Shown piece after piece: positions 1,757 to 29,432 of a stretch of DNA of 32,000 nucleotides. Below the pieces are notes generated by a model. It saw nothing but the letters and a program-made list of their open reading frames with translations. It did not search any database and was not told the DNA's origin. The stretch's first letter is position 1. Each line of letters opens with the position of its first letter. Source of the DNA: an uncultured Chloroflexia bacterium (GTDB taxonomy: Bacteria > Chloroflexota > Anaerolineae > Anaerolineales > Anaerolineaceae); the NCBI GenBank assembly GCA_963704755.1, contig OY969938.1, positions 1,170,001-1,202,000 on the forward strand, given 5' to 3'. The position numbers were made by a program, and so were the translations under genes.

Positions 1757-1866
1757 GTAACTGCTCAACTTTCCCGGAGAAACAGGGAATTATTGTTGTT
1801 TTTCGCGTGCTGCGCACGTGAAAAACAACAATAATTCCCTTCCCCGTAAACTGGCTTGAACAGTAC
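1757..1866. repeat. Family-1 palindromic element, copy A
   Basis: 25-bp arms at 1785-1809 and 1815-1839 (gggaattattgttgtttttcgcgtg / cacgtgaaaaacaacaataattccc, one G-T pair). Outer motifs are gtaactgctcaac (1757) and ttgaacagtac (1856-1866). Confidence 0.8.
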
Positions 1867-2034
1867 CAAAAAATTTCTTATATCCCTGCTGATTGGACAC
1901 AATTTATGATGCGATTACCCCGATTAAGGAGTTCCTGAATTTGCGGACGTATAATAGGATCATTCGGGTGTCCATCTCAAACGAGAATCAAGCTTTCTCA
2001 CATACAAAATCTCGATTAACTTTAAATCTACCCC

Positions 2035-4029
2035 ATGAAGCCATCCCGCCTCACGCTCTTCCTGATCGCCCTGCTCTGGCCGGTGATCGTCCTGGTCCTG
2101 TACTATTCCACCAACAAGCCGGTGACGCCGGACCTGGCGCTGCACCTGGCCCAAATGATCGGACACATCCTGGCCGCTGCCCTGCTGGTGATCCTGGCCG
2201 GCGGGCTTGGATACAGCCTGGCCCGCCTGGAGGGGCTGCACCCGCTGGCCCGCCTGGCACTGCAGGCCGCCCTGGGGTTGGGTTTGCTGGCCATCGGCGT
2301 CTTGATCGTCGGCTCTACCCTTGGGCTGGCCGCCTGGATCCTGTGGGGCGTACTGCTCCTGGCCGGTATCTTGCTGCGCAAGGCCTGCCTGGGCTGGCTG
2401 CGCCAGTTCGCCGGCCTGAATGAGGTTTGGGCCGCCGGCAGCCGCTTCGAGCGGACGGTCGCGGTTCTGCTGGCACTGATGTTCGCCGCCACTCTGGCCG
2501 TCGCGTTGGCGCCGCCGGTCAAGTACGACGCGCTGATGTATCACCTGACCCTGCCCCAGGCTTACCTGGCCCAGGGCAAGATCAGCTACCTGCCCTGGAT
2601 CGTCATGAGCGGCCATCCGCAGACGGCCGAGATGTTGTACACCTGGGCCATAGGCCTGGGCGGGCTCGAAACGGCGCCCGTATTAGGCTGGTTTTTCTGC
2701 CTGCTGGCCAGCCTGGGGTTGCTGGGCTATTTATTTCAGCGCATCTCCATCCGGGCCGCCTGGGTGGGATTGGGGGCCTTGCTGGCCGGCTATACCCTGG
2801 CCGTATCCACTGCCTGGGGCTACGTGGACTGGCTGGGGCTGTACTTTGGCCTGGGCTGCCTGGTCAGCCTGGACCGCTGGCGGGCCGAAAACCGCCAGTC
2901 CGACCTGCTGCTGGCCGGCGCCTTCGCCGGCATGGCCATGGGCACCAAATACACCTCGGCCGTGCTTATCCTGGTAGCCGGGGTAGCCCTCACCTGGCAC
3001 GTCTGGAAAAAGAAAGCCGCCTGGTGGCCGGCCATGCTCCAGTTTGGCGCGGCCGCGCTGGTCCTGGTCCTGCCCTGGCTGGTCAAGAACGCCCTCACTA
3101 CCGGCAACCCGTTTTACCCATTCTTCTTTCCGGCCGGCGCCATGGATGCGCTGCGCATCTCGATCTATCAAGGCGCTCCGCCGGCCGGCAACTGGTGGGA
3201 TTTTTTCTTACTGCCTTTGCGGGCCACCATGCTCGGGGTGGACGGCGGCGCAACCTACAGCGTCTCGATCGGGCCGTTGCTGCTCGGCCTGGGCGCGCTG
3301 GCCTGGATGGGCGCCCGCGAGCGCGACGAGCGCCAGAAAACCGCCCTGCAAAACGCGGCCCTGATCGGCCTGAGCGGGCTGGCGATCTGGGCGGTCGGCA
3401 ACCGCTTTTCGGGTTACCTGATCCAGACCCGTATGTATTTTTCGCTGTTCCCGGCCTTCGTCACCCTGGCCGCCTTTGGCTACGCGGCCGCCTCGCGGAT
3501 CACCTTTTCCGGGGTGCGGCTTGGCCGGATCTTGAACGCCGTTGTAATTCTGGTTCTGGGCTTGAACAGTTTGGCAGTGGTGCTGAATACCGTTAAAATG
3601 GGATCAGCCCCGGCCGCGTTGGGCTTCACCAGCCAGGAGGATTACCTGGCCGACAACCTGGGCTGGTACCAGCCGGCGGTCCAGGCCATTAACAACCTGT
3701 CCGAGCCGGACCGGGTGCTGCTGATCTACGAGCCGCGCAGCCTGTACTGCCTGCCGCGCTGCGCGCCGGACGAAATCCTGGACCGCTGGGTACGCGATTA
3801 CACCCAATATCAGGATTTTGCGTCCATCCGGGAGGCCTGGATCCAGCAGGGATTCACCCACATCCTGGTAAATCGCAGCGGGATCGAGTTTTTAAAGACG
3901 GCCGGCGATCCGCATCACCCGCTGGCCGCGTTGCAGGCCCTGGACCAGTTCCTGGCTCAACTGCCCGCACCGCAGAAGTTCGGAGATGCGTACGAACTGT
4001 ATCCTCTGGCAAAGGGAATAACTTCCTGA
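2035..4029 (+). CDS. Polytopic membrane protein, putative GT-C-fold glycosyltransferase (ArnT/PMT-like)
   Basis: 664-aa ORF with more than 12 hydrophobic segments. An early loop motif (KYDALMYHLTLPQAYL) and a soluble C-terminal domain of about 150 aa recall GT39/GT83-like enzymes. GC-rich codon usage produces shadow ORFs in other frames. Confidence 0.65.
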   Translation: MKPSRLTLFLIALLWPVIVLVLYYSTNKPVTPDLALHLAQMIGHILAAALLVILAGGLGYSLARLEGLHPLARLALQAALGLGLLAIGVLIVGSTLGLAAWILWGVLLLAGILLRKACLGWLRQFAGLNEVWAAGSRFERTVAVLLALMFAATLAVALAPPVKYDALMYHLTLPQAYLAQGKISYLPWIVMSGHPQTAEMLYTWAIGLGGLETAPVLGWFFCLLASLGLLGYLFQRISIRAAWVGLGALLAGYTLAVSTAWGYVDWLGLYFGLGCLVSLDRWRAENRQSDLLLAGAFAGMAMGTKYTSAVLILVAGVALTWHVWKKKAAWWPAMLQFGAAALVLVLPWLVKNALTTGNPFYPFFFPAGAMDALRISIYQGAPPAGNWWDFFLLPLRATMLGVDGGATYSVSIGPLLLGLGALAWMGARERDERQKTALQNAALIGLSGLAIWAVGNRFSGYLIQTRMYFSLFPAFVTLAAFGYAAASRITFSGVRLGRILNAVVILVLGLNSLAVVLNTVKMGSAPAALGFTSQEDYLADNLGWYQPAVQAINNLSEPDRVLLIYEPRSLYCLPRCAPDEILDRWVRDYTQYQDFASIREAWIQQGFTHILVNRSGIEFLKTAGDPHHPLAALQALDQFLAQLPAPQKFGDAYELYPLAKGITS

Positions 4030-4042
4030 GAAAAATCGAAAC

Positions 4043-4146
4043 CATTCAGCTATTTCAAAAGAAAGAGGTGTTTTTTTATTTTTCGCGTGCTTCGCACGCG
4101 AAAAATAAAAAAACACCTCCAACCTCCGAATAAACCTGAGTAATAG
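4043..4146. repeat. Family-1 palindromic element, copy B
   Basis: Perfect 26-bp arms at 4065-4090 (gaggtgtttttttatttttcgcgtgc) and 4094-4119, with loop ttc. Right flank is ccgaataaacctgagtaatagc. There is no U-tract on either side. Confidence 0.85.
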
Positions 4147-4174
4147 CAAAAATCTTATTGTGGAGAGGAAAACC

Positions 4175-6709: not shown

Positions 6710-6776
6710 CCCGGTATTCTATGCCGGGTGCCTCGTGAGCTTGTGCCTTCCGTAGATAAATCTGCACCTACATATA

Positions 6777-6815
6777 CACGAAGTCCCACGAAGGTGGGGC
6801 TTCGTGCTTTTGTTG
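6777..6815 (+). terminator. Rho-independent terminator downstream of the ATPase gene
   Basis: 13-bp stem cacgaagtcccac / gtggggcttcgtg (one G-U pair), GAAG loop, then cttttgttg. Confidence 0.65.
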
Positions 6816-6872
6816 CGGTGATTTCAATCGCCAACGCCATAAGCCATAAATAGAATCGCAGGAATCGCAGGA

Positions 6873-6902: not shown

Positions 6903-6920
6903 CGCCCTTAAGAGGTTCCC

Positions 6921-7856: not shown

Positions 7857-7887
7857 CCGTAAACTGATCAAGCTCATACAAAAGAGT

Positions 7888-7969
7888 CCCCGAAATTGAA
7901 GTGTTTGCGCGGGTGATACTTGAGCAAAGTCTTTAATTTCGGATTTCGTTCCAGATAAGCCTCAGTTAC
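7888..7969. repeat. Family-1 element, degenerate copy K
   Basis: The arms ccgaaattgaagtgtttgcgcg and tgagcaaagtctttaatttcgg are imperfectly complementary. The right flank ends in aagcctcagttac. Confidence 0.55.
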
Positions 7970-7987
7970 GTCATAATAATAAAAATT

Positions 7988-8012
7988 TAGCCTCCCTCTA
8001 ATCCAGGGAGGC
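7988..8012 (+). terminator. Hairpin terminator candidate after lipA
   Basis: 9-bp stem agcctccct / agggaggct. It is preceded by an A-rich tract and followed by ttcatttg. Confidence 0.45.
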
Positions 8013-8046
8013 TTTCATTTGTTACATTTCGAACTAAAAGATATCG

Positions 8047-8158
8047 GTAACCTTTCAGGCTCCTGTTAAGAAGTTCCCGAATTTGAGGTGCGTGCGGGGG
8101 CTCCGCCCCCGCACGCACCTCAAATTCGGGTTTCTTCCCCCTTAGGCTGAGCAGTTAT
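8047..8158. repeat. Family-1 palindromic element, copy F
   Basis: Perfect 25-bp arms at 8076-8100 (cccgaatttgaggtgcgtgcggggg) and 8106-8130. The outer arms gtaacctttcaggctcctgttaagaagtt and tttcttcccccttaggctgagcagttat are partly complementary. Confidence 0.85.
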
Positions 8159-8210
8159 CAATATAGAAAATTTTTCACGAGCAAAGCCCGCGAAAAATTT
8201 TCTATATTGA
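8158..8210. repeat. Family-1-related palindrome, copy J, abutting the kimA stop codon
   Basis: Perfect 19-bp arms tcaatatagaaaatttttc (8158-8176) and gaaaaattttctatattga (8192-8210). The apex has the ttttcNcg...cgcgaaaaa signature seen in copies A-D. Confidence 0.8.
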
Positions 8211-8215
8211 TCAAT

Positions 8216-10129
8216 TTAAATCTTCGAACCGATGTGGAACGGCACTTCGATGATCACGATATCGTGGTAATTCTTCAGCATGCTGCGCAGGTGATACGCC
8301 GTCTGATTGTGTAAAACCTGGGCAACCGGGTTCTCCGCCACGAACTCTGGGATCACCACGGTGGTGAGCTGTTGGGGAAATTCCTCGCTATTGACCTTGA
8401 TCACATAATCGACAATGGGGGTGACCACATCGCGGTAGTCATAATCGACGCATACCAGTGAGACTCCGCAGGTTACGTTGCTGAAACGCTCCCAGCGCTC
8501 GTGGACGCGTTGTTTCATCTCATCCGAGGTGACAATCACCAGGGCGCGTACGTCGTTCGAGAGGCGTTTGGCATACTGCAAGGCTAACAAAGAACCACGG
8601 TGCACGTCACCGATCGGCACGATAACCACATTGGCCACCCCGGCCAGCGTCTCGGGTTTGAGGCCCTGGGTGCTCAACGCATTCGCAACCCGGTCGTAGT
8701 GGCCGTGGATCGAGCGGAACAAGATCACCTGCAAAGGGATAATCACTGCCACGATCCAGGCGCCTTCGACAAATTTGGTGGTCAACAAAATGATAAACAC
8801 CAGCAGCGTCGCAGCCGCTCCTACAAAATTGATGACCCGCTTGACCCGAGCGCCCTTCTCGTAATGGACAGTCGTGACCGAAGTGCGGATCGACTCGCCC
8901 GGTTTGAGGTGGATGATGCGCCCCATCAACCGGACCATGCCGGATTGCGATAGGAAGAAGCACAACATGACCCCCAACGCATACAGCGGGAGCATGGCGA
9001 TTTCATCTGCCCCGAACAGGATGATCAAAGAAGACGCCAGCACGGTCAGCAAAGCGATACCACCGCTGTACACCAGCCGGTCACCGCGTACATCCAGCCA
9101 GCGTGGCAGGAAATTATCTTCAGCCAACAAGGAGGCCAGCCTGGGGAAGCCCTGGTAACCGGTATTGGCAGCCAGGAACAGGATGGTAGCGGTAAAGAAC
9201 TGTACCCAGTAATACAGGAAGCCCCTGCCCGCAATGCTGCGGGTCATTTGCGAAAGGATGCTCTCTTCCTCGGCCGGGATGAGGTGCATATGAGTCGAGA
9301 GGAAGGTGATGCCGGTAAACAATGTCATCGCAATGACGCCCATGGCGATCATGGTCTTGATCGCATTGACCGATTCGGGCGGTTTGAAGGCTTTTACCCC
9401 GTTCGAGATCGCTTCGATCCCGGTCAACGCCGTACAGCCGCCGGCAAAGGCCCGCAATAGCAGCCAGATGTAAGCAAAACCGGTCACAGAAAATTTCGGC
9501 GCGACCACCTCTGTAACCACCGGCAAATGCGCCACACCAAACAGGCCCACTGCCCGGGCCAGGCCAAAGACCACGATGGCGAACACCCCAATAACAAACG
9601 CGTAGGTCGGTATGGCGAAAATCGTCCCACTTTCCCGGATCCCACGCAGGTTAATCCAGGTGACCAGTAAAACTACCAGAAGGGCAATTTCGACCCGGTA
9701 GGTATACAGTTCGGGGAATGCAGAAGTCACAGCCCGGACACCGGCCGCGATCGATACGGATACGGTTAATACGTAATCTACCAGCAAAGCCGCGGCCGCC
9801 ATCAAAGAAGGCACTTCACCCAGATTGTCCTTAGCAACGGTATAAGCCCCACCCCCATCCGGGTAATGCAAGATCGTCTGGATGTAGCTGGAGATAACCA
9901 TCAGAACCAACGCGGCCACGCACAACCCGAGAGGAAGCGTCATTCCCAGGGCCCCGCTCCCCAACAACACCAGCACCGTCATAATCGCTTCGGTAGCGTA
10001 TGCGTTGCTGGAGATTGGATCGGACGCGAAAATGGCTAGCGCACGAAGGTTATCGAGACGTTCTTGAATATCACTACTGTTAGGAAAAGGTTCACCAATA
10101 AGGACACGTTTTAGGTCGTTTGTATTCAT
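8216..10129 (-). CDS. kimA: KimA-type K+/H+ symporter (APC superfamily, with cytoplasmic C-terminal domain)
   Basis: 637 aa. N-terminus is LKRVLIGEPF...LRALAIFASDPISSNAYATEAI. The blocks GGGAYTVAKDNLGE..LLVDYVLTVSVSIAAG..VTSAFP, LLRAFAGGCTALTGIEAISNG, ANTGYQGFPRL, VRGDRLVYS and C-terminal VIVPIGDVH...LHNQTAY are collinear with my recollection of B. subtilis KimA (YdaO). Confidence 0.85.
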   Translation of the reverse strand: MNTNDLKRVLIGEPFPNSSDIQERLDNLRALAIFASDPISSNAYATEAIMTVLVLLGSGALGMTLPLGLCVAALVLMVISSYIQTILHYPDGGGAYTVAKDNLGEVPSLMAAAALLVDYVLTVSVSIAAGVRAVTSAFPELYTYRVEIALLVVLLVTWINLRGIRESGTIFAIPTYAFVIGVFAIVVFGLARAVGLFGVAHLPVVTEVVAPKFSVTGFAYIWLLLRAFAGGCTALTGIEAISNGVKAFKPPESVNAIKTMIAMGVIAMTLFTGITFLSTHMHLIPAEEESILSQMTRSIAGRGFLYYWVQFFTATILFLAANTGYQGFPRLASLLAEDNFLPRWLDVRGDRLVYSGGIALLTVLASSLIILFGADEIAMLPLYALGVMLCFFLSQSGMVRLMGRIIHLKPGESIRTSVTTVHYEKGARVKRVINFVGAAATLLVFIILLTTKFVEGAWIVAVIIPLQVILFRSIHGHYDRVANALSTQGLKPETLAGVANVVIVPIGDVHRGSLLALQYAKRLSNDVRALVIVTSDEMKQRVHERWERFSNVTCGVSLVCVDYDYRDVVTPIVDYVIKVNSEEFPQQLTTVVIPEFVAENPVAQVLHNQTAYHLRSMLKNYHDIVIIEVPFHIGSKI

Positions 10130-10646: not shown

Positions 10647-10690
10647 AATAGTCACTGTCAATCGCCCGGGTGCCCCCCTCACCCTGGCGA
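10647..10690 (+). terminator. Strong hairpin plus T-tract (plus-strand polarity); may also serve the converging carH-like operon
   Basis: The arms gtcaatcgcc (10647-10656) and ggcgattgac (10676-10685) pair, extended by gggtg/caccc. TTTTAT follows on the plus strand and an A-tract precedes it on the minus-strand reading. Confidence 0.5.
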
Positions 10691-10709
10691 TTGACTTTTA
10701 TCGGTAGTT

Positions 10710-12751: not shown

Positions 12752-12947
12752 GGCCAGACCTTTCCGGTAATTGCTCTGTTATTTGCTAAAATTCTGCCCT
12801 TCCGGTATGGTTGAGCAATTACGATCGATATTTTATAGCGGTATTATCCCACGATTTTCAGGCATAAACAGCGCTCATAACTCAAATACCGCCCGCCCAA
12901 GGGGGTTATAATAACCCTGGAAACAGCATAACCCAATCGGTAAGGCT

Positions 12948-13000
12948 CCGCATTTGAGGTGTTTGCGCTGACTAAGTCAGCGCAAACACCTCAAATGCGG
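12948..13000. repeat. Family-1 palindromic element, copy G
   Basis: Perfect 25-bp arms ccgcatttgaggtgtttgcgctgac (12948-12972) and 12976-13000, with loop taa. It lies in a divergent promoter region, so it is not a 3'-end terminator. Confidence 0.85.
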
Positions 13001-13106
13001 TAATCCCTTGCCAGGGTCAGCAGGCTGACCGCACTTGCTTTTCTGATCGCCAACACCCATCCAAGAGCGCCTAACTTGTTTTACCTAACCCAATCAGGAG
13101 AATCAA

Positions 13107-14336
13107 ATGAATACCAGCGTTGTCGAACGATTCATTCGTTACATCAAAATCGATACTCAATCTGACCACTACGCCGAAAGCTTTCCCACCACGGCCAGGC
13201 AGTTCGACCTGGCTCATTTACTGGTCGAGGAATTAAAAAAGATCGGCTTGAGCGACGCCGCTGTCGATGAAAATTGCTACGTCATGGCCACCCTACCGGC
13301 TAACGTGGAAGGGGTTTCCCCGATTGGCTTTATCGCCCACATGGATACCAGCCCGGACCTGAGCGGAACCGGTGTGAATCCGCAATTCGTCGATTATGGC
13401 GGAGGGGATATTGTCCTCAATAAGGAAAAAGGCATCGTTCTCTCGCCCAAAGAATTTCCTGACCTTAACCTTTATGCCGGCCAGCGCCTGATTACCACCG
13501 ACGGGAACACCTTGCTGGGGGCAGATGACAAGGCCGGGATAGCCGAGATCATGGCCGCGATGGAATACCTGGTCAGCCACCCCGAGCTCAAACATGGCAC
13601 CATCCGGGTTGGCTTTACCCCGGACGAAGAGGTCGGCCACGGGGCGGATCGCTTCGACGTGAGCAAGTTCAACGCTAAATTTGCCTATACCCTGGATGGC
13701 GGCGAGATTGGCGAGCTGCAATACGAGAACTTCAACGCCGCCTCGGCTAAATTGACCATCCACGGCCGCAACGTCCACCCCGGCTCTTCGAAAGACAAGA
13801 TGATCAACGCCATCCAGATCGGGATCGACCTGCACAACCTGCTGCCGGCGCACCAGCGCCCCGAGCACACCGACCAATACGATGGCTTCTATCACATCAC
13901 TGTCTTCGAAGGCACGGTCGAAGAAGTGGTCATGCGCTACATTATCCGCGAGCACGATCGCGACAAGTTCGAAATCCTGAAGACCGCCCTGGAAAAAGCG
14001 GTTGCTTTTATCAACGAGCGTTACGGCGCCGGTGCGGTCCAGCTCGAGCTGGAAGACAGCTATTACAACATGAAGGAACAGATCCTGCCGGTTTTCGAGG
14101 TGATCGACCTGGCCAAAAAAGCCATGCAGTCCCTGGACATCACCCCCCTGATCCGCCCCATCCGCGGCGGCACTGACGGCAGCCGGCTTTCGTATATGGG
14201 GCTGCCCTGTCCCAACATCTTCACCGGCGGGCACTACGCCCACGGCCGTTTCGAATTCGTCCCGGTCAATTCGTTGGAAAAGGCCGTCGAGGTGATCGTC
14301 AAGATTGCGGAGTTAGCGGGCGAAGCCGGAAAATAA
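13107..14336 (+). CDS. pepT: Peptidase T (tripeptide aminopeptidase, M20B)
   Basis: N-terminus is VERFIRYIKIDTQSD. The M20 metal-binding blocks IAHMDT, GADDKAGIAEIM and TPDEEVG are present. RBS is CAGGAG. Confidence 0.9.
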   Translation: MNTSVVERFIRYIKIDTQSDHYAESFPTTARQFDLAHLLVEELKKIGLSDAAVDENCYVMATLPANVEGVSPIGFIAHMDTSPDLSGTGVNPQFVDYGGGDIVLNKEKGIVLSPKEFPDLNLYAGQRLITTDGNTLLGADDKAGIAEIMAAMEYLVSHPELKHGTIRVGFTPDEEVGHGADRFDVSKFNAKFAYTLDGGEIGELQYENFNAASAKLTIHGRNVHPGSSKDKMINAIQIGIDLHNLLPAHQRPEHTDQYDGFYHITVFEGTVEEVVMRYIIREHDRDKFEILKTALEKAVAFINERYGAGAVQLELEDSYYNMKEQILPVFEVIDLAKKAMQSLDITPLIRPIRGGTDGSRLSYMGLPCPNIFTGGHYAHGRFEFVPVNSLEKAVEVIVKIAELAGEAGK

Positions 14337-14654: not shown

Positions 14655-15836
14655 TTAGCCTTTGACCGAGCCGGCCAGCAGCCCACGAACGAAATACCGC
14701 TGCAAGGCAAAGAACACGATCATTGGCAGCGCCATCGAGATGAACGCCGCGGCGGTCAACAACTGCCAGCCGCTTCCCAGGGACGTGACCATGTTGGCAA
14801 TCTGGTAGGTCAGCACCGGGTTCTGCCCGCCCAGGAAGACCAGGGCAACCAGGAAGTCATTCCAAATCCACAGGAACTGGAAGATACCCAGGGATGCCAG
14901 GGCCGGCACCGACAAGGGGATGGCCAGCCGGTAGAAGGCCGTCCAATGCGAAGCCCCATCCAGGTAGGCCGACTCGAACACTTCCCGCGGCAGCCCGCCC
15001 AGGAAGTTACGCATCAGGAAGATCGCGTACGGCAAGCCAAAGCCGGTATGGAATAGCCAGATGCCGACAAAAGTACCGTTCAAGCCGAGTTGGGCATACA
15101 GCTTCGAGATCGGGACCAGGGTCATCTGCAACGGGACGATCTGCAAGCCGACCAGCAGGGCAAACATCGCCTGCCGCCCGCGAAATTCCATCCAGGAAAA
15201 GGCGTAAGCAGCAAAGGCGGCAAAAATGATCGGGATGAAGGTCGCCGGAATCGAGACGATCAAGCTGTTGATGAACGCCCGGCCCATACCGCGTGGGTTG
15301 AGCAGGTCGCTGGAGTTACAGTTCAGATCGACGCTTTGTGTTCCGGCGGCGCAATCGGTCACATAGTTGTTTGTCCCCCGGTAGCCCATGATCGCGTCGA
15401 TATAGTTATTCAGCGTGAACAAAGGCGTCTTGTTGATGCCGGAAATGCGCTTGATGTAGGTTAAAACGTCGGCCGCCTCCTGGGCGCTGGGGACTGAAAT
15501 GGTGCCCATGTGTGGTTGGCCATTGAAATCCTTGTTGAGCACGGCCAGCAAGCTGGAAGAACGCGAGAATTGGGAGACGATGTTCGCATCCGTCAAATCC
15601 GCCGTGGGGATGGCCTTCCCGTCGCTGCCGTGGCAGGATGCACAGGAAGCCTTATATTCCTTCGCGCCCGGATAAGTAAACGCGGTCCACCAGCCGGTTA
15701 AGTTGATCGACTGTAATGGGCGGAAGGAGGTCACCAACAGGCCGATGGTGGGGACCAGCCAGATCACACAGATCCCAATCAGGATGATGTGGGTCGGCAG
15801 TGAGCGAAAGAAACTCTTGATACGATCGCCGTTCAT
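14655..15836 (-). CDS. Carbohydrate ABC transporter permease (MalG-like) carrying an inserted cytochrome c-like domain in the first periplasmic loop
   Basis: The C-terminal 260 aa form a typical MalG/BPD_transp_1 core, with an EAA-like motif ESAYLDGASHWTAFYRLAIP. About 110 extra residues after TM1 contain CASCH, PHMG and the helix EAADVLTYIKRI. The start overlaps the upstream permease stop (ATGA-type coupling). Confidence 0.85.
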   Translation of the reverse strand: MNGDRIKSFFRSLPTHIILIGICVIWLVPTIGLLVTSFRPLQSINLTGWWTAFTYPGAKEYKASCASCHGSDGKAIPTADLTDANIVSQFSRSSSLLAVLNKDFNGQPHMGTISVPSAQEAADVLTYIKRISGINKTPLFTLNNYIDAIMGYRGTNNYVTDCAAGTQSVDLNCNSSDLLNPRGMGRAFINSLIVSIPATFIPIIFAAFAAYAFSWMEFRGRQAMFALLVGLQIVPLQMTLVPISKLYAQLGLNGTFVGIWLFHTGFGLPYAIFLMRNFLGGLPREVFESAYLDGASHWTAFYRLAIPLSVPALASLGIFQFLWIWNDFLVALVFLGGQNPVLTYQIANMVTSLGSGWQLLTAAAFISMALPMIVFFALQRYFVRGLLAGSVKG

Positions 15837-16765
15837 CGGGTCGCCTCCTGCTGCTGGAAGCGGCGAATGTTCACAAACATCACCGGGATAATCAGGACTA
15901 CCAACACCATAGCGATGGCTGTGCCTCGCCCGGTTTGGAAGTTCTTGTACATTTCAAAATACATCCGGTTGGCGATCACGTCGGTACCGTAGTTCCCGCC
16001 GGTCATCACATAGACGATATCGAACACTTTCAGCACATTGATGATCATAGTGGTGATCACTACGGTGATGGTTGGGGCAATCATCGGGACCATAATCTGC
16101 CAGAAGACCGTCCACTCGTTCGCACCATCCACCCGGGCTGCTTCCAGAATTTCGTCCGGGACCCCCTTCAGGGCCGCGGCCAGGATGGTCATACAAAAGC
16201 CGGTCCACATCCACACGCCCACGACGATCAAACAAATCGTATTCACTTGTGGAACTGTCAGCCAGGCAACCGCCTTCCCGCCCAGCCCGGTTATGATTGC
16301 GTTCAGCAAACCAACCTGAACCTGGGTAGTACCGTAGTCGTAGACAAATTTCCAGATCACGCCTGCCCCAACGAAAGAAATGGCCATGGGCAGGAAGATG
16401 ATCGATTTGGCGATAGCCTCGTACTTGACCCGATCAGCGAGGGTAGCGATCAGCAGGCCAATCAAAACTGTCGCGCTAACCATCAGGACAATCCAGATCA
16501 AGTTGTTCAGCAAAGACGTCCGCATGACATCCGACGTCAAGGCGTAACGATAATTCTCGAATATTCCCCAACAGGGTTGGCCGGCCTGGCAAGCCTGGTT
16601 GGCCCAACCCGTGTTATCGACATTGCGAAAACTCAAATAAAGCGTATTCAGCCCCGGATAGACAATGAATACGAACATGACGATCAATGCGGGGGACAGA
16701 TAAAGCCAGGGGGTGAGTGGCTTTTGACGCATAACCCCCGGGACAACTTTCGCACTTGCAGCCAT
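15833..16765 (-). CDS. Carbohydrate ABC transporter permease (MalF/UgpA-like)
   Basis: 310 aa with six hydrophobic segments. The EAA motif is EAARVDGANEWTVFWQIMVP. Confidence 0.85.
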   Translation of the reverse strand: MAASAKVVPGVMRQKPLTPWLYLSPALIVMFVFIVYPGLNTLYLSFRNVDNTGWANQACQAGQPCWGIFENYRYALTSDVMRTSLLNNLIWIVLMVSATVLIGLLIATLADRVKYEAIAKSIIFLPMAISFVGAGVIWKFVYDYGTTQVQVGLLNAIITGLGGKAVAWLTVPQVNTICLIVVGVWMWTGFCMTILAAALKGVPDEILEAARVDGANEWTVFWQIMVPMIAPTITVVITTMIINVLKVFDIVYVMTGGNYGTDVIANRMYFEMYKNFQTGRGTAIAMVLVVLIIPVMFVNIRRFQQQEATR

Positions 16766-16834
16766 ATCGCTCCTCCTTCTAATGAAACACGCCGGGTGTC
16801 AGTTGACACCCGGCGTTGAATTACCAGGAACGTT

Positions 16835-23333: not shown

Positions 23334-23387
23334 CCTGAATCCTCCCCGGTTTTATTAACGTAGCTTCGTCTATGGTAATCGAATTTA

Positions 23388-23456
23388 AGGGTTTTGCGGT
23401 ATAAAGCAACGCAAAGCCCTCAATTTTGGGAACTTTTTAACAGGAGCCTGATTAGC
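23388..23456. repeat. Family-1 element, short copy L
   Basis: 11-bp stem agggttttgcg / cgcaaagccct (one G-U pair), followed by the conserved tail tcaattttgggaactttttaacaggagcctgattagc. Confidence 0.6.
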
Positions 23457-23475
23457 TTCTGCCCAAAAATTATTT

Positions 23476-23584
23476 GTAACTGCCCGGGCCAGTTCAAGGG
23501 TCAGGGTGTGTTGTTGTTTTTCGCGTGCAAATCACGCGAAAAACAACAACACACCCTGATTTTCCGGGAAAGCTGAGTAGTTAC
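23476..23584. repeat. Family-1 palindromic element, copy C
   Basis: Perfect 26-bp arms at 23502-23527 (cagggtgtgttgttgtttttcgcgtg) and 23533-23558. Left end is gtaactgcccggg. The right end ttttccgggaaagctgagtagttac is the reverse complement of the left end of copy A. Confidence 0.85.
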
Positions 23585-23592
23585 AATTATTT

Positions 23593-23642
23593 GTTACTGC
23601 TCAGGCAAGTGCGAAAGGCGAGGGTGTTTTTATTATTTTTCG
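23593..23642. repeat. Family-1 half-element C' (left end plus left arm only)
   Basis: Sequence is gttactgctcaggcaagtgcgaaaggcgagggtgtttttattatttttcg, with no matching right arm before the next gene's stop at 23657. Confidence 0.6.
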
Positions 23643-23656
23643 AATAGATACCAATC

Positions 23657-24610: not shown

Positions 24611-24747
24611 TCTACAACTCCTTTGACGTCCAAATCAAACCGTTTAAGGCGCATAAGGGCTCTAAGGATAGACGAAGTCTTTCCGTTGAAAGTTCCCCCA
24701 CGGCACTCCCCCGAGAAAGCTTCCTCACCCCCAGATATGGTATACGG

Positions 24748-25239: not shown

Positions 25240-25261
25240 TTCTCCTTGGGCTTAATTGTAC

Positions 25262-25400
25262 ACGGAATAAGGAAGGAAGGGGATGAGGCAACGAGGCAAT
25301 GAGGGAATGAGGAAAGGCGCGGTTGGGTTGCGGACTCGATTGCGGGATAGGTTCATTTAGCGGAGGTTTGATCACGACGGGCCTTGCCCGCAACCCGATC
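25262..25400. repeat. Family-2 composite: purine-rich tract with GAGGCAA/ATGAGG direct repeats plus a GGGTTGCGG/CCGCAACCC hairpin
   Basis: The purine-rich tract runs 25266-25318. The 13-bp stem is at 25321-25333 / 25388-25400. gtacacggaa (25258-25267) is the reverse complement of ttccgtgtac-like sequence at 14439-14453. Confidence 0.65.
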
Positions 25401-25586
25401 TCTTCGGAAATGCCAATATTGAAGATCGAACTCGATGGATGCCCAATGGATGGAATGGCCGGCGCTGGCCCTCACTCCAACCCCACTCCCAGAAACGGGA
25501 GACGGGCTAAGAATGGTGGGCTTCGGGCAAAATCCGGAATACCAACCACATGAATTATTTCCCCGGCGATCTCAATGAGCCCTCCA

Positions 25587-25645
25587 CCCACCCTACATGC
25601 TCCGTTGCCTCATTGCCTTATCCTTTCTTTCCTCTCTTCTCCCCC
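25587..25645. repeat. Family-2 pyrimidine-rich arm, inverted relative to 25266-25318
   Basis: Sequence is cccaccctacat + ccgttgcctcattgcc + tcctttctttcctctcttctcc. It shares the 12-mer CCCA[A/C]CCTACAT with 14419-14430. Confidence 0.6.
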
Positions 25646-25687
25646 TTTTAGAGTATACTTTCCCCATCAATTTACCCGTAAAGGACT

Positions 25688-26422
25688 ATGCACGAATTGG
25701 AAAAGAAATACGACCACCGCGCGTATCGCTATTTTGACTGGGTGATGGCCCTGTTCGTTACCGTTTTGATTACCAGTAATATTGCCTCGTCTGCCAAGAT
25801 TATCGATTGGGGTGTTTCGATTTTCGGAATCCGCCTGGCGTTTGACGGCGGAACGATCCTCTTCCCGATCAGCTACATTTTTGGCGACGTGTTGACCGAA
25901 GTATACGGCTTTCGCAAGGCCCGCCGGGTGATTTGGACCGGTTTCGCCATGCTGACCCTGTCAGCGGTGGTGCTCTGGCTCGTGCGCATCATGCCGGCCG
26001 ATGCGAGCTGGCAAAGTTATGCCGGCCAGGGGGCTTACGACGCCATCCTGGGCGGCATGAGCTCGGGCGGGATCGTGCTGGCCTCGCTGACCGCTTACCT
26101 GGTCGGTGAATTCAGCAATTCGGTCGTGCTGGCCCGCATGAAGGTGGCCACTCGCGGGCGCTTCCTGTGGATGCGCACTATCGGCAGCACCCTGGTCGGT
26201 GAAGGTGTGGACAGCATCATCTTCGTGTTCATCGCTACACTGGCCGGTGTTTTCCCCTGGGAAATCTTCACCTCGCTGGTCCTGACCAACTACATCTTCA
26301 AATGCAGCATCGAAGCGATCATGACCCCGGTCACCTACCGGATCGTCAACGTGCTGAAACGGGTCGAAAACGAAGACTACTACGACACAGACACGAAATT
26401 TACGCCGTTTGCGGTGGAATGA
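25688..26422 (+). CDS. yhhQ: Queuosine-precursor (preQ0/preQ1) transporter, VUT/DUF165 family
   Basis: 244 aa. Characteristic N-terminal blocks are SNIASSAKII, then FDGGTILFPISYIFGDVLTEVYGFRKARRVIW, with six TM segments. Confidence 0.85.
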   Translation: MHELEKKYDHRAYRYFDWVMALFVTVLITSNIASSAKIIDWGVSIFGIRLAFDGGTILFPISYIFGDVLTEVYGFRKARRVIWTGFAMLTLSAVVLWLVRIMPADASWQSYAGQGAYDAILGGMSSGGIVLASLTAYLVGEFSNSVVLARMKVATRGRFLWMRTIGSTLVGEGVDSIIFVFIATLAGVFPWEIFTSLVLTNYIFKCSIEAIMTPVTYRIVNVLKRVENEDYYDTDTKFTPFAVE

Positions 26423-26672
26423 AGAGAGAATAGAGATTGGAGAAAAGAGATTGGAGAAAAGAGAATAGTTCTTTTCTCGTTTGGGCCAGTCTCCTGACCG
26501 GGCCTGTTTATTAAGCCCAAAAAATAGAGAGTAGTTCGTGGTGTGATAATGCAACGAAGGAATGCGAATTTCCCTCGTTGCCTTGTCGACTTAGTGCCTG
26601 GACCTGAATACAGGTTACTAATTTCTACTCTCCAGTCACTTCTCACTTTTTTCTATTCTCTATTCTCTTCCT
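26421..26672. repeat. Family-2 nested palindromic element filling the yhhQ/rsmI convergent gap
   Basis: Outer inverted repeats are gaagagagaatagaga (26421-26436) and ttctattctctattctcttcc (26651-26671). A tandem 14-mer agattggagaaaag x2 lies at 26434-26461. Inner inverted repeats are atagagagtag / ctactctcc. The central hairpin is gcaacgaagg / ccctcgttgc (26551-26581). Confidence 0.7.
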
Positions 26673-27325
26673 TTTATCACCACCACATACTCCCCCCGAA
26701 TAGGCTCAGTTTTGAAGGTCTCGATCAGCTCACTCAGGCTGGCGCGATAGACCGTCTCGAATTTTTTGGTCAGGTCGTTGGCCACGGCGGCCGGGCGGTC
26801 GCCGTAGACGGCCAGGGCATCGGCCAAAAAGGCCTGCAAACGGTGCGGGCTTTCGTAGAAGATCAGGGTATGGGGCGATTCCTGGTCCACGGCAAAGAAG
26901 CGTTGGCGGGTGCCTGATTTGCGCGGCGGGAATCCGCGGAAAGTGAAGCTATGCACCGGCAGGCCGGAGAGGATCAGCGCCATGATCAAGGCGGTTGGGC
27001 CGGGCACGGCCGACATAGGCAGTCCGGCTTGCAGTACGCTGCGCACCAACACGTAGCCGGGGTCCGAGACCGAGGGAGTACCGGCGTCGGTCACCAGCGC
27101 GACGGATTTGCCCTCTTGCAACAAATCCATCACCTTGGGCAGCGCGCGTTCCTCGTTGTCTTCGCGAAACGAGATTTGCGGTTTATGGATATCGAAATTC
27201 TTCAGCAAGAAGCCCGTTTTACGGGTATCCTCGCTGACCACGACGTCTGCGGCTTTCAGCGTCTCCAGGGCGCGTTGTGAAATATCGCCCAGGTTACCAA
27301 TGGGGGTAGAGACCAGATTAAGCAT
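26660..27325 (-). CDS. rsmI: 16S rRNA (cytidine1402-2'-O)-methyltransferase
   Basis: N-terminus is [33 protein letters not shown] tetrapyrrole-methylase-fold body follows and ends [11 protein letters not shown]. Confidence 0.9.
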
Positions 27326-27337
27326 CGGCTTGGTTGG

Positions 27338-28141
27338 CTAATCGATCTTGATGTCGGCCAGGCCTTCGGCCGGGGCCGGATACTTCATATCCAGTTTCTT
27401 CAGCGCATCGACCAGCACATTGGCCACCACCAGGTTGCGGTACCACTTTTTATTCGAGGGGACGACATACCAGGGAGCAACCTCTGTGCTGGTTTTATTC
27501 AAAACGTCCTCGTAGGCAGCCAGGTAATCATCCCACAGCTCGCGTTCTTTCAAATCAGCCGGGTTGAATTTCCACTGCTTGCTGGAATCGTCCAGGCGAG
27601 CCTGCAAGCGTTCCTTTTGCTCTTTTTTATCGATATGCAGGAAAAACTTCAGGATCAGGGTGCCTTCCTCGCTCAACATGCGCTCGAAATGGTTGATCTC
27701 CTCGTAGCGCTTCTTCCAGATCTTCTCCGGCACCAGTCCGTGTACCCGCACGACCAGAACGTCCTCGTAATGGCTGCGGTTGAAAATGACAATTTCCCCT
27801 TTTTGGGGGGTCTGCTTGTGGATCCGCCAGAGAAAGTCGTGGGCTGCCTCTTCCGGCGTAGGCACCTTAAAACTGGCTACACGCACACCCTGTGGGTTGA
27901 CCCCCTCGAAAACATGGCGGATCGTCCCATCCTTCCCGCTGGTATCCATCCCCTGCAAAACGACCAGAATTTTATGCTTGCCTTCGGCATAAAGCAACTC
28001 TTGCAATGTGTCAAGCTGGCTATCCAGCTCTAACAAAGCCTGCTTTCCCTTATCCTTGTCTTTCGTATACTCGCCGGTATCCTCCGGATCGAAATCCTGC
28101 AAGTGTATCTTCTGGTCGGGCTTTACCAGATAACGATTCAT
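27338..28141 (-). CDS. ppk2: Polyphosphate kinase 2 family (polyphosphate:nucleotide phosphotransferase)
   Basis: Walker A-like LQGMDTSGKDGTI. The blocks FLWRIH, IFNRSHYEDVLVVRVH and the lid region are collinear with single-domain PPK2 (267 aa). Confidence 0.9.
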   Translation of the reverse strand: MNRYLVKPDQKIHLQDFDPEDTGEYTKDKDKGKQALLELDSQLDTLQELLYAEGKHKILVVLQGMDTSGKDGTIRHVFEGVNPQGVRVASFKVPTPEEAAHDFLWRIHKQTPQKGEIVIFNRSHYEDVLVVRVHGLVPEKIWKKRYEEINHFERMLSEEGTLILKFFLHIDKKEQKERLQARLDDSSKQWKFNPADLKERELWDDYLAAYEDVLNKTSTEVAPWYVVPSNKKWYRNLVVANVLVDALKKLDMKYPAPAEGLADIKID

Positions 28142-28227
28142 ATTTGTTCCTCCTTCCAGACCATCAGGGCTACACAGTTTTCAACAATTATAGCCGCTTC
28201 TGGAAGGATCTCCTGGCATCCTACAAG

Positions 28228-28306
28228 ATTTGAAGTGAATGCGTGGGCTTCGCCCCCGCATTCACTTCAATTTCGGGAATTTTTTAACAGGAGTCCGGGG
28301 CGCTAC
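28228..28306. repeat. Family-1 palindromic element, copy H
   Basis: Arms are ttgaagtgaatgcg (28230-28243) and cgcattcacttcaa (28257-28270), plus ggg/ccc at the apex. The conserved tail is tttcgggaattttttaacaggagtccgggg. Confidence 0.75.
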
Positions 28307-28324
28307 AAAAATTCTTTACACCTT

Positions 28325-29074
28325 TCACGACCTGGCCACAAAGTTCATCGTCAAAACAGCCTTATCTTCGGTATTCAACATCCCCAGGATAGAAATTGGT
28401 CCTACCCCAAAATCGCTCAAAGAGATTGTCGTGGTCGCCGTGCCGGTGAGGGTATTCCCTTGCAGGCTGGCTGTTACATCGAAAGTGACCTCGCGCGTGG
28501 TCTGGTGAACGGTTAAATTACCGGTCACTGTGAAGTCATAGGATTGGCCATCGACGTAGCTGTCCGGCAGTCCCGTGATCTTGGTCGGATCGAAGACCGC
28601 CATGGGGTATTTCGCCGATTCCAAATAATCATTGCGGATACGCTGGTCGCGCATCCCGCTATCCGACTTGAACTGGCTGATATCTACCTGGATTTCGCCA
28701 ATGGTGCTGGCGGGCGGGTTGGCCATGTTGGCCTGAATTTCGCCGCTGACCTTGCCGGTCGTCCCGACCGCCAGGTTGAAGGCGTTATTCTTGTTGATGA
28801 ACGTCTCCCCCACCTGATACGACACGGTCAACTCATCCGGTACGATTGTAAACACGACCACCCCACCCGCGGTGGTCGCGGCCGGCGTGGCGGCCGAACT
28901 GCCGGCCACCTCCGGGGTCGTGTTGGTTACGCTGGTATGTTCTGGCGCCACAGTGGGCGTCGATCCGGCCGGCGAAGGCGTGTCCACCGCAGGTGTGGCC
29001 CCCGTTGCGGCCGGCGTTGAACAAGCCGCCAGTGCGAAACTGAATATCAATAATGTCGGCAGCAGAAATTTCAT
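28325..29074 (-). CDS. YceI-like lipoprotein (polyisoprenoid-binding beta-barrel family)
   Basis: ATG 29074 is preceded by GGAG; the track's 29089 start is a TTG. The lipobox is MKFLLPTLLIFSFALAAC. A Thr/Pro/Ala linker follows. YceI blocks are SQFKSDSGMRDQRIRNDYLESAKYP and LTVHQTTREVTF. Confidence 0.85.
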   Translation of the reverse strand: MKFLLPTLLIFSFALAACSTPAATGATPAVDTPSPAGSTPTVAPEHTSVTNTTPEVAGSSAATPAATTAGGVVVFTIVPDELTVSYQVGETFINKNNAFNLAVGTTGKVSGEIQANMANPPASTIGEIQVDISQFKSDSGMRDQRIRNDYLESAKYPMAVFDPTKITGLPDSYVDGQSYDFTVTGNLTVHQTTREVTFDVTASLQGNTLTGTATTTISLSDFGVGPISILGMLNTEDKAVLTMNFVARS

Positions 29075-29161
29075 TCTCTGGATCTCCAAATCTTGTTGTA
29101 GGTCGAGACCGGCGAGCCCTGTCTCGAATGGTCGTAAATAATTGATATAGTTTATCCAATA

Positions 29162-29185
29162 ACATTAAATGTTACATTAAATGTG
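29162..29185. promoter_or_regulatory. Tandem 12-bp near-palindromic direct repeat upstream of the yceI-like gene (candidate operator)
   Basis: acattaaatgtt (29162-29173) and acattaaatgtg (29174-29185). Each unit is an ACATT-N-AATGT palindrome, about 90-110 nt upstream of the start. Confidence 0.3.
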
Positions 29186-29296
29186 ACAGCTCAGCTACCG
29201 CAAAAAAAGAGAGGTGTTTTTATTGTTTTTCGCGTTCGAAATCGCGCGAAAAACAATAAAAACACCCCTAATTTCCGAACTAACCAGGGTAGTAAC
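29184..29296. repeat. Family-1 palindromic element, copy D
   Basis: Perfect 22-bp arms ggtgtttttattgtttttcgcg (29213-29234) and 29245-29266. The flanks gacagctcagctaccgcaaaaaaagagagg and ctaatttccgaactaaccagggtagtaac parallel those of copy B. Confidence 0.85.
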
Positions 29297-29334
29297 TATT
29301 AAATATAGCCATCCTGTCCAAATCGTAAACGATC

Positions 29335-29432
29335 AGCCTGACAGGCAAGAATTCCGAATTTGATATTTCTGCGGGAGCTTCGCTCCCGCAGAAATATCAA
29401 ATTCGGAGAAAATTACCCTTAAGGACGAAAAA
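29335..29432. repeat. Family-1 palindromic element, copy I, abutting the recR stop
   Basis: Perfect 25-bp arms ccgaatttgatatttctgcgggagc (29354-29378) and 29382-29406, with loop ttc. The left flank cagcctgacaggcaagaatt parallels the right flank of copy F. Confidence 0.85.

Follow-up and report, generated by a model that had tools for sequence, protein, structure and literature searches.

The 32-kb stretch of DNA analyzed here (the window) contains 12 related elements in three subfamilies, all 12 located in intergenic DNA, which makes up ~17% of the window. They are small noncoding MITEs whose ends match those of single-ORF IS66-family (ISBst12-group) insertion sequences, and they are unusual in one respect, a central hairpin of ~26 bp that shows near-perfect pairing despite sequence drift between copies. 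Their origin is probably to be sought in IS66/ISBst12 elements of the Anaerolineaceae host, with copies mobilized in trans and arms kept paired by template switching, a reading that we hold with fair confidence.

Anatomy and subfamilies of the elements

The elements measure ~110 bp. A left-type end and a different right-type end, each ~28 nt long, enclose a ~55-nt central palindrome with arms of 26 bp and a loop of 3 nt. At both ends the sequence starts with the terminal inverted repeat of IS66/ISBst12, GTAACTGCTCAGC. Type 1a comprises A, C, and C', type 1b comprises B and D, and type 2 comprises F, G, H, I, K, and L, while J is a hairpin without recognizable ends. An earlier sequence-only reading had described oriented units with two distinguishable ends, and the end alignment bears this out, the left end of A reading as the right end of C in reverse complement. 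Two motifs that it listed were also recovered, the tail GGGAAYTTYTTAACAGGAG at three places and the apex gc-ttc-gc in B, H, and I. The elements are, in order along the window:

A, 1757-1866, minus strand: type 1a MITE; ends GTAACTGCTCAAC and GT-ACTGTTCAAG; hairpin 1784-1840 (27-bp arms, one G-T, loop TGC); no clean target duplication at its flanks
B, 4038-4146, plus strand: type 1b MITE that takes up the space separating two codirectional genes; hairpin 4065-4119 (26-bp arms, perfect, loop TTC); flanking 8-mers GAAAAATC (4030-4037) and CAAAAATC (4147-4154), 7/8 match
K, 7859-7969, plus strand: type 2, full length but decayed; ends GTAAACTGATCAAGC and CCTCAGTTAC; hairpin remnant 7889-7943
F, 8047-8158, plus strand: type 2 MITE, the best preserved of its type; ends GTAACCTTTCAGGC and ATAACTGCTCAGCC (reverse complement); hairpin 8076-8130 (26-bp arms, perfect, loop TCC)
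J, 8157-8211, no strand assigned: solo hairpin (26-bp arms, two mismatches) with the type 1 apex TTTTTCRCG and no recognizable terminal repeats; adjoins F and a permease stop codon
G, 12928-13031, minus strand: type 2, ends decayed; hairpin 12948-13000 (26-bp arms, perfect); probably inside a 5' UTR, judging from a TATAAT-like box (~12905-12915) on one side of it and the ATG at 13107 on the other
L, 23378-23465, minus strand: type 2, decayed; hairpin remnant 23378-23430; left-end tail GGGAACTTTTTAACAGGAGCC at 23428-23448
C, 23476-23584, plus strand: type 1a MITE; ends GTAACTGCCCGGG and GTAACTACTCAGCT (reverse complement); hairpin 23501-23559 (27-bp arms, perfect); target duplication AATTATTT at 23468-23475 and 23585-23592, 8/8
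C', 23593-23642, plus strand: type 1 copy truncated to its left half, GTTACTGCTCAGGC...GAGGGTGTTTTTATTATTTTTCG, starting directly after the target duplication of C
H, 28228-28306, minus strand: type 2, sole end kept left-type (GTAGCGCCCCGGAC...); tail 28275-28293; hairpin 28230-28270 (19-bp arms, one mismatch, loop inverted relative to F)
D, 29183-29296, plus strand: type 1b MITE; ends GTGACAGCTCAGCT and GTTACTACCCTGG (reverse complement); hairpin 29210-29269 (25-bp arms, 22 perfect, one mismatch, 10-nt loop); flanking 8-mers CATTAAAT (29175-29182) and TATTAAAT (29297-29304), 7/8 match
I, 29325-29436, plus strand: type 2; left end GTAAACGATCAGCC; right end decayed and overlapping the recR stop codon; hairpin 29353-29407 (26-bp arms, perfect, loop TTC)

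Nine hairpins with arms of 19 to 27 bp were present where long hairpins had been reported, compared with a longest arm of 13 bp in 30 locally shuffled windows. Predicted hairpin energies ranged from -39 to -73 kcal/mol, and the RNA folds of nine elements, seven of them full length and two partial, had z-scores of -6 to -12. The 12-mer GTAACTGCTCAG occurred eight times in the window with up to two mismatches (1.3 expected), six of these at element ends. A covariance model trained on A, B, C, F, G, H, I, J, and L061_e880 (nine hairpins) picked up both degraded copies, K and L; elements were also present in the relative L061 and were not found in the syntenic loci L062 to L064 (56 kb). The elements are small, noncoding, and AT flanked.

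The previous description of conserved ends with copy-specific stems turned out to be inverted. Stem identity between copies was 73 to 85% versus 64 to 81%, often far lower, for the flanks, i.e., stems are conserved between copies at least as well as ends. Within a subfamily, arms differed at 4 to 10 of 25 positions, so that stem interiors differing "at most positions" was an overstatement. Each of the 12 copies nevertheless has a stem of its own. In most copies one or both terminal repeats are degenerate, which makes their present mobility doubtful.

Termini and target duplications of a probable IS66-type origin

Four complete single-ORF IS66-family insertion sequences were delimited, and both ends of each were aligned to those of the window elements:

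D. wulumuqiensis: terminal repeat GTAACTGCTCAGCA at both ends; target duplication TAAAAATC
B. thuringiensis: terminal repeat GTAACTACTCAGCT; target duplication AATTTATC
Ca. Chlorohelix (Chloroflexota): terminal repeats GTAACAATTCAGCC and GTAACAGTTCAGAC; target duplication TTCAATTT
G. kaustophilus: terminal repeats GTATCTATTCAGCC and GTAACTATTCAGCC; target duplication GACGAGTT

The window termini aligned with both ends of all four and also matched the published repeats of ISDge4, GTGACTACTCAGCA and GTAACTGCTCAGCA, which are accompanied by an 8-bp direct repeat (PMC12898284). The reference transposase used as the query, from G. kaustophilus pHTA426, contains the domains DDE_Tnp_IS66, zf-IS66, and DUF6444. 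Members of the ISBst12 group (e.g., ISDge4 from Deinococcus geothermalis and an IS66-like element on Geobacillus kaustophilus pHTA426) share with the window elements the terminal repeat GTAAC(T/A)NNTCAGC and an 8-bp, often AT-rich target duplication. Clear duplications were kept in only three of the approximately seven full-length window copies (C, 8/8; B and D, 7/8 each). What had been called "MITE-like" can thus be assigned specifically to ISBst12-group terminal inverted repeats with 8-bp target duplications. The insertion sequences measure 1.45 to 1.64 kb, whereas the window elements, of ~110 bp, code for nothing and carry a perfect 55-nt palindrome between their ends, which is not visible in the ISBst12-group ends examined. 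Subterminally, only the Chlorohelix element showed a likeness, a weak one at its right end, and no Anaerolineae insertion sequence with a matching subterminal sequence was found.

These similarities suggest that the ~110-bp MITEs derive from single-ORF insertion sequences of the ISBst12 group. No transposase gene was found in the window, as already noted from the sequence, and the copies would have been mobilized in trans by an ISBst12-group DDE transposase, presumably encoded elsewhere in the genome. They would have landed in AT-rich intergenic 8-bp targets, duplicated upon insertion.

The same termini bear on the possibility that these are REP/REPIN palindromes moved by a RAYT (an IS200/IS605-like Y1 transposase) via single-stranded hairpin DNA, which we regard as very improbable. 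REPs resemble the window elements in abundance, intergenic location, and a hairpin structure kept across copies diverged in sequence, and some right ends here contain GTAG (CTGAGTAGTTAC). However, this GTAG belongs to the IS66-type terminal repeat, ~30 nt away, and neither it nor CGTC occurs beside the hairpin. Unlike REPs, the window elements lack a GTAG/CGTC-tagged 20-to-40-bp unit, are ~110 bp long with two different ends, and carry DDE-family terminal repeats and 8-bp target duplications, and no RAYT or other Y1 transposase is encoded in the window. Of the earlier overall interpretation, the MITE-like part stands, while the REP/RAYT alternative and the contrast between ends and stems do not. 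The structured-RNA family proposed along with them received no positive support either, as the elements occur in both orientations and are strictly Watson-Crick paired, and the suggested Rfam comparison gave no hit.

Mirrored substitutions in the hairpin arms

Covariation was computed on nine aligned hairpins (26 pairs, 234 cells). Of the cells, 95.7% were paired, and 24 of the 26 pairs changed on both sides; neither value was reached in any of 500 shuffles, and slid controls gave 36 to 54% pairing. That pairing rather than sequence is maintained, as first proposed from the letters alone, is therefore backed by strong covariation. Pairwise, nearly all arm differences were compensated (F-I, 6/6; F-G, 6/6; I-G, 9/9; A-B, 7/8). 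G-U pairs occupied only 2 of the 234 cells and eight cells had no standard pair, so the argument from G-U scarcity rests on 10 cells lacking Watson-Crick pairing. The loop flips its orientation relative to the flanks, reading TCC in F and TTC in I but GAA in H, and in a related MAG nine loops read CAGA and three were inverted. Relative to flanking genes, approximately four elements are sense and six antisense. Even where the terminal repeats have decayed (B, G, and I), the arms are still perfect.

Strict Watson-Crick pairing, flipping loops, and the absence of orientation bias together point to homogenization of the arms at the DNA level. Copies would diverge by 15 to 35% after insertion while the two palindrome arms of each stayed matched, and whatever changed in one arm would be copied to the other or erased. 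The likeliest mechanism may be intramolecular template switching during DNA replication (quasipalindrome correction), which would also invert the loop. Template switching is known to homogenize inverted-repeat arms, invert spacers, and yield one-step compensatory changes (Ripley model; Monttinen and Loytynoja 2022, PMC8794818; PMC8604942; PMC5941160). All four outcomes that this model predicts (homogenized arms, one-step compensation, inverted spacers, and palindromes that now and then extend outward) are seen in the window elements, although it is a mutational process rather than an element family, and we infer its action here from the pattern. Strict Watson-Crick pairing would, however, also be expected with selection on the transcripts of both strands or on a DNA cruciform, and template switching alone does not explain the constant arm length (~26 bp, range 25 to 27 bp). 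This length is uniform across subfamilies, though their paired segments differ in sequence.

Alternatively, the host might have co-opted the MITEs, with pairing kept by selection on the transcribed RNA hairpin as an RNase III site, mRNA 3'-end stabilizer, or attenuator, as for Correia, ERIC, and REP. The very strong covariation, the extreme hairpin stability, arms longer than RNase III requires, the location of B, H, D, I, and G within probable operons or a 5' UTR, and pairing that outlasts the decay of the transposon ends would all fit, and effects of MITEs through RNase III and RNase E have precedent (reviewed in PMC10969869). We nevertheless find this explanation unlikely, given the near absence of G-U pairs, the unbiased orientation relative to transcription, and the free inversion of loops. 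Moreover, two-step compensation predicts stems that evolve far more slowly than neutral flanks, and they diverge by 15 to 27% within subfamilies.

The copies could also be too young to have accumulated mismatches, each born from a different perfect-palindrome master with no maintenance in situ. The target duplications remaining in B, C, and D agree with a recent birth, and variation in the terminal repeats might have been inherited from different masters rather than reflect decay. Yet since no stem is shared among the 12 copies, many masters would be needed, and these must themselves differ by mirrored changes, which only pushes the problem one step back. Perfect or near-perfect arms are also found with strongly decayed ends (G and I) or none recognizable (J), and we give this scenario little credence.

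Possible fate as RNA and comparison with other MITEs

GC-clamped hairpins in intergenic DNA bring to mind ordinary Rho-independent or bidirectional terminators, and a loose pattern scan did flag truncated F, B, and C. The polarity is nonetheless reversed on both strands, with the T-run before the GC stem and the A-run after it, so that no U-tract follows the hairpin. Besides, A and G lie in divergent promoter regions or a 5' UTR, the hairpins are embedded in a ~110-bp repeated unit with terminal repeats and target duplications, and the organism has normal short terminators (e.g., 7989-8013, 6777-6806, and 16789-16816). That these are terminators is hardly credible, in agreement with the sequence-only reading. 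If transcribed, the palindrome would form a very stable hairpin and, because no U-tract follows, might serve as a processing site or block 3' exonucleases instead of terminating transcription.

The closest parallels in form are Correia/NEMIS of Neisseria and ERIC/IRU of enterobacteria, likewise dispersed, intergenic elements of ~100 to 150 bp with a long hairpin from end to end, which are cotranscribed with their neighbors, the RNA being a known substrate of RNase III or RNase E (PMC10969869). They show no sequence similarity to the window elements, their parent transposase family is different, and they duplicate TA instead of 8 bp. Unlike in either, the ~26-bp core of the window elements is sharply bounded, strictly Watson-Crick paired, and perfect while the outer part decays.

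Palindromes and copy number

Nine hairpins with arms of 19 to 27 bp were recovered by both an inverted-repeat scan and a separate hairpin scan of the window, whereas the longest arm in 30 locally shuffled versions of it was at most 13 bp. The long palindromes first noticed in the sequence-only reading are therefore real, and the perfect arms claimed for copies B, C, F, G and I were found in all five.

Hairpins of the window (window coordinates)
1784-1840, hairpin
4065-4119, hairpin
8076-8130, hairpin
8157-8211, hairpin
12948-13000, hairpin
23501-23559, hairpin
28230-28270, hairpin
29210-29269, hairpin
29353-29407, hairpin

Self-BLAST and MAFFT comparisons showed that repeated units of ~110 bp enclose the hairpins. 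Altogether, 12 dispersed copies of 50 to 112 bp are found in 32 kb, none with an ORF, which corresponds to the size and copy number of MITEs. A covariance model trained on eight window hairpins plus one of L061 (a syntenic locus of the nearest relative examined, with 78% PPK2 identity) found every hairpin-bearing copy, including the degraded D, K and L. Single-strand folds of seven full-length and two partial elements gave z-scores of -6 to -12, and the termini also pair in the folds of elements with both ends intact. All 12 copies are located within the non-coding ~17% of the window, where they fill ~21% of the intergenic DNA at a density of about one copy per 2.7 kb. The window ORFs are ordinary housekeeping genes and, as noted from the beginning, there is no transposase among them.

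Anatomy and subfamilies

Full-length elements carry distinct left-type and right-type ends of ~28 nt each, in agreement with the two distinguishable ends described initially. A GTAACTGCTCAG-like sequence opens both end types in inverted orientation, and the recurrent tail that had also been reported does exist, corresponding to the left-type end of type 2. In most copies, perfect pairing ends abruptly 25 to 27 bp from the apex, a limit common to types 1 and 2 although their paired segments are of different sequence.

Subfamilies and ends of the window elements
Type 1a: copies A, C and truncated C'; core GAGGTG-T-rich-TTTTTCGCGTGC / loop / reverse complement
Type 1b: copies B and D; core identical in pattern to type 1a
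Type 2: copies F, G, H, I, K and L; core CCGAATTTGAGGTGnnTGCGGGGGC / ttc / reverse complement
J: hairpin only, recognizable ends absent
Left-type (L) end: GTAACTGCYCRRGCCAGTTYAMGGG
Right-type (R) end: GTAACTRCTCARCTTTCCCGGARAAWCAGGG

Relationship to IS66 family insertion sequences

The GTAACTGCTCAGC-like ends of A, C, C', D and F matched those of four delimited insertion sequences in an alignment of element and insertion-sequence ends (alignment A4), as well as the published terminal repeats of ISDge4, an IS66-family element (ISBst12 group) from Deinococcus geothermalis (PMC12898284). The alignment with the delimited insertion sequences spans the first 13 to 14 nt; subterminal similarity is weak, and it is the Chlorohelix element that shows it, at its right end. 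The transposase of the Geobacillus kaustophilus element contains the domains DDE_Tnp_IS66, zf-IS66 and DUF6444; as a tblastn query against plasmids it retrieved 122 records, and three further copies were delimited.

Insertion sequences with matching ends
G. kaustophilus pHTA426, IS66-like single-ORF element (L065, 14107-15741): ends GTATCTATTCAGCC and GTAACTATTCAGCC, duplication GACGAGTT
D. wulumuqiensis, insertion sequence: GTAACTGCTCAGCA at both ends, duplication TAAAAATC
B. thuringiensis, insertion sequence: GTAACTACTCAGCT at both ends, duplication AATTTATC
Candidatus Chlorohelix allophototropha (Chloroflexota), insertion sequence: ends GTAACAATTCAGCC and GTAACAGTTCAGAC, duplication TTCAATTT

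Flanking 8-bp duplications were found around C (AATTATTT, 8/8), B ((G/C)AAAAATC, 7/8) and D ((C/T)ATTAAAT, 7/8), while those of A, F, I and K are decayed or absent. It is very unlikely (estimate, <1e-4) that duplications would appear by chance in three of the four full-length type 1 copies, even with AT-rich flanks. The window elements thus present the hallmarks of the ISBst12 group, i.e., an 8-bp duplication and a GTAAC...TCAGC terminal repeat. Because of these duplications and of the ends shared with insertion sequences, we classify them, on sequence grounds, as palindromic MITEs with IS66/ISBst12-type ends. No IS66-type transposase homologue was detected by tblastn in the window or in the comparison loci L001 to L064. 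Homologues of the Chlorohelix transposase were numerous in metagenomes, the matches being short contigs without taxon labels. Elements C and F gave no BLAST match against plasmids.

The initial proposal had been a MITE/REP-like or structured-RNA family. The MITE part holds by ends, size and duplications, but the other two gained no support. REP/REPIN sequences are imperfect palindromes of 20 to 40 bp with a GTAG or CGTC tag at one end (PMC3733652) and have no target duplication. The window elements, in contrast, are ~110 bp long, without a tag adjoining the hairpin, and have two distinct DDE-type ends and 8-bp duplications; there is also no RAYT (Y1 transposase) gene among the window ORFs. As for a structured RNA, comparison with Rfam gave no matches at gathering thresholds, placing the family outside this database, and relaxed thresholds produced only sub-threshold matches, mostly to miRNA-precursor models, as expected of generic long hairpins. 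Rho-independent terminators were rejected, since a T-run lies 5' and an A-run 3' of the stem on both strands, a reversed polarity that leaves no U-tract after the hairpin. Nor are the copies confined to gene 3' ends, as some are found in divergent gaps and in a putative 5' UTR. Ordinary short terminators are present in the window at 6777-6806, 16789-16816 and, after lipA, 7989-8013. The latter, between lipA/K and F, is canonical and bidirectional (AGCCTCCCT-7nt-AGGGAGGCT, each strand having its T-run), which shows that ordinary terminators are in use in this organism besides the MITE hairpins. Integron attC sites were discarded by inspection, since R''/R' cores and a cassette array are both missing and the neighbors are housekeeping genes. 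A small ORF starting after the SD-like motifs (GAGGTG or AGGAG) was also discarded, as neither a start codon nor an ORF is found downstream of them.

A review of prokaryotic MITEs does not mention IS66 (PMC10969869), and we found no description of IS66/ISBst12-derived MITEs, or of this Anaerolineae family, in the literature searched. In Anaerolinea thermolimosa, many palindromes were reported by a generic REP-finding tool and left uncharacterized (PMC12306157). MITEs are a known kind of element; what the matching termini now identify is the parent insertion-sequence group of the window family. This ties a very dense, unannotated repeat family of an Anaerolineaceae genome to the single-ORF IS66/ISBst12 transposase group.

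Mirrored evolution of the arms

The elements had been described as having conserved ends but copy-specific stems. While the feature itself was confirmed, this contrast needed correcting, as the arms are 73 to 85% identical within a subfamily and the flanks 64 to 81%, often far less. Differences between arms are nearly always mirrored: all were compensated between F and I (6/6), F and G (6/6) and I and G (9/9), and between A and B seven were compensated and one was single-sided. In an alignment of nine hairpins (alignment A3; 26+3+26 nt), 95.7% of the cells were paired, compared to 36 to 54% in slid controls, and both sides change in 24 of the 26 pairs. The covariation score was 0.93 versus 0.24 in shuffles, and none of 500 shuffles reached 0.93. 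We observed zero to one mismatches per 26 bp, when ~5 to 6 would be expected for independent arms at ~20% divergence. This strictly Watson-Crick, mirror-evolving core of ~26 bp is the most interesting property of the family.

Selection may keep the pairing, acting either on the hairpin as a transcript or on a cruciform formed by the DNA. However, four observations favor a DNA-level process over RNA selection. First, G-U was found in only 2 of 234 cells, while 8 cells had no standard pair; so few G-U relative to non-standard cells would point to fresh point mutations, unlike the mismatches that RNA helices tolerate. Second, loops are inverted relative to their flanks, both in the window (TCC in F and TTC in I versus GAA in H; TTC in B where A reads GCA) and in a related family from the Anaerolineales MAG CAZCTC01 (nine CAGA, 3 of 12 inverted). 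Third, elements are oriented both ways with respect to the neighboring genes (about four sense and six antisense). Fourth, the arms of B, G and I are still perfect despite their decayed transposon ends. Template switching in inverted repeats is known to homogenize arms and invert spacers, as well as to extend palindromes and make one-step "compensatory" changes (PMC8794818, PMC8604942, PMC5941160, PMC13100816). Replication template switching within the central palindrome, which would homogenize the arms, is the most likely mechanism given this pattern, in which informative mismatches are few. With dozens of mirrored substitutions, almost no G-U pairs and flipped loops, in elements that lack an obvious strand-specific function, the family provides clean natural data for separating hairpin "compensatory" changes due to selection on structure from those made by one-step template switching.

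A more speculative idea, to which we give little credence, is that the central palindrome is a working part of the transposon. At ~110 bp, the elements fall below the persistence length of DNA. A palindrome with 26-bp arms, extruded as a cruciform or hairpin, could bring the two IS66-type ends close to each other for the transposase to act on, or else snap-back synthesis could rebuild the palindrome in each copy-out round. Either role would explain the perfect, fixed-length core (25 to 27 bp, 3-nt loop and GC clamp) across subfamilies with paired segments of different sequence, and also the similar 26-bp, 3-nt-loop cores of L061 and the soil contigs L077 and L117. If true, it would represent a structure-dependent step undescribed for MITEs of DDE transposases.

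Distribution in relatives and metagenomes

The nearest named homologues of the window PPK2 belong to Bellilinea and Thermanaerothrix (Anaerolineaceae). The syntenic locus L061 contains its own versions of the elements, and the covariance model gave no matches in 56 kb of the syntenic loci L062 to L064 (74 to 76% identity). Relatives share 74 to 78% protein identity with the window, and their intergenic DNA is too diverged to align. The distribution is patchy and lineage specific, as mobile DNA would give.

Elements of L061
880-936, element version
2077-2126, element version
8537-8590, element version
13056-13108, element version
16720-16759, element version

Scanning of genome contigs with the type 1 core pattern retrieved 60 loci, mostly unrelated palindromes of other phyla. 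The motif T5CGCG common to loci such as those of Leptolyngbya (L039) and Ktedonobacteraceae (L024) was rejected as evidence of homology because the pattern itself had selected them. Among these loci, a truly related family was found only in MAG CAZCTC01 (L003, L010 and L034), with fourteen hairpins in 24 kb. Twelve of them have a 4-nt loop, CAGA/TCTG (CGGA in one), and the stems of 15 to 22 bp vary between copies and stay complementary. Twelve hairpins lie within elements whose ~70-nt left flanks, kept in most, start with GTAGCGTCCCGC. The family is a sister of window type 1.

In metagenomes, the type 2 tail gave no matches and the type 1 arm gave 69, mostly one near-identical human-gut repeat together with a few soil and freshwater palindromes. 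The gut repeat (...GCCTCGCAGAGTTCGCGGCCCGCAGGCCGCGAATAAGGTTTGATCCATTTTTCGCGGCGGCGTGTACGTCGCGAAAAATACTTTGCGCGGAGAGAGTGTG...), at least 130 nt long and near-identical between contigs, is present on ~55 contigs among L066 to L134, of which at least 11 are labeled human gut metagenome and the others carry no label. It is a gut-bacterial repeat or mobile element that would fit the type 1 pattern either by chance or by distant relation. Near-perfect palindromes with cores of 24 to 26 bp and a 3-nt loop (GGTGTTTCGGTGAGTTTTTCGCGGGC gtc ...) appeared in the soil metagenomes L077 (3443-3497), L117 (1558-1612) and L118 (1430-1478). The one in L117 extends over ~115 nt, and differences between L077 and L117 are mirrored across both arms. 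Their architecture is like that of the window elements, but the outer sequence is different.

Genomic context

Several copies are probably located inside transcription units, judging from their neighborhoods. B fills the 130 bp that separate two co-directional genes; H, D and I are inside the dnaX-ybaB-recR-yceI-ppk2 cluster, whose counterpart in relatives is compact; and G sits between a TATAAT-like box and a start codon. A palindromic TATAAT-containing motif is found at 12901-12920 (GGGGGTTATAATAACCCTGG), with a version GGGTATAAT(A)ATCCTG in L061 (1034-1050 and 8682-8699), recurring ~20 to 200 nt upstream of start codons in both. This motif is probably the -10 region of the local promoter, which would place G within a 5' UTR. 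G was rejected as a positional orthologue of L061 8537-8590, since G lies downstream of the TATAAT-like box and the L061 copy upstream. If transcribed, perfect duplexes of ~26 bp would be substrates of RNase III or barriers to exonucleases, effects that have been shown for Correia and ERIC elements (PMC10969869). The family is of practical relevance to assembly and gene calling in Chloroflexota genomes and MAGs, as repeats break assemblies and hairpins are present within operons and 5' UTRs.

Elements also cluster end to end, as in F (8047-8158) with J (8157-8211) and in L, C and C' (23378-23642), where C sits exactly on the 8-mer preceding C'. This suggests preferential insertion beside existing copies or into shared AT-rich targets. 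An inverted pair (GTAATTGCTCTG ... TTGAGCAATTAC) similar to the MITE terminal repeats delimits a segment of 56 bp at 12767-12822, which has neither central hairpin nor target duplication. This segment could represent what remains of a MITE, minimal or internally deleted, or else a site bound by a regulator upstream of the aminotransferase gene.

A different hairpin, GTCAATCGCCCGGGTG-7nt-CACCCTGGCGATTGAC, was found at 10657-10695 on the 3' side of a MerR/B12-binding (CarH-like) gene. Unlike the MITEs, it is conserved in sequence at the equivalent position of L061 (6037-6077, near identical), and a similar one appears in L063 (5482-5518), which has no MerR/B12-binding gene among its called genes. 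Its role may be that of a terminator or of an operator. Finally, the gene at 14655-15836 encodes an ABC-transporter permease (BPD_transp_1) with an N-terminal cytochrome c domain (Cytochrome_CBB3), an unusual fusion.
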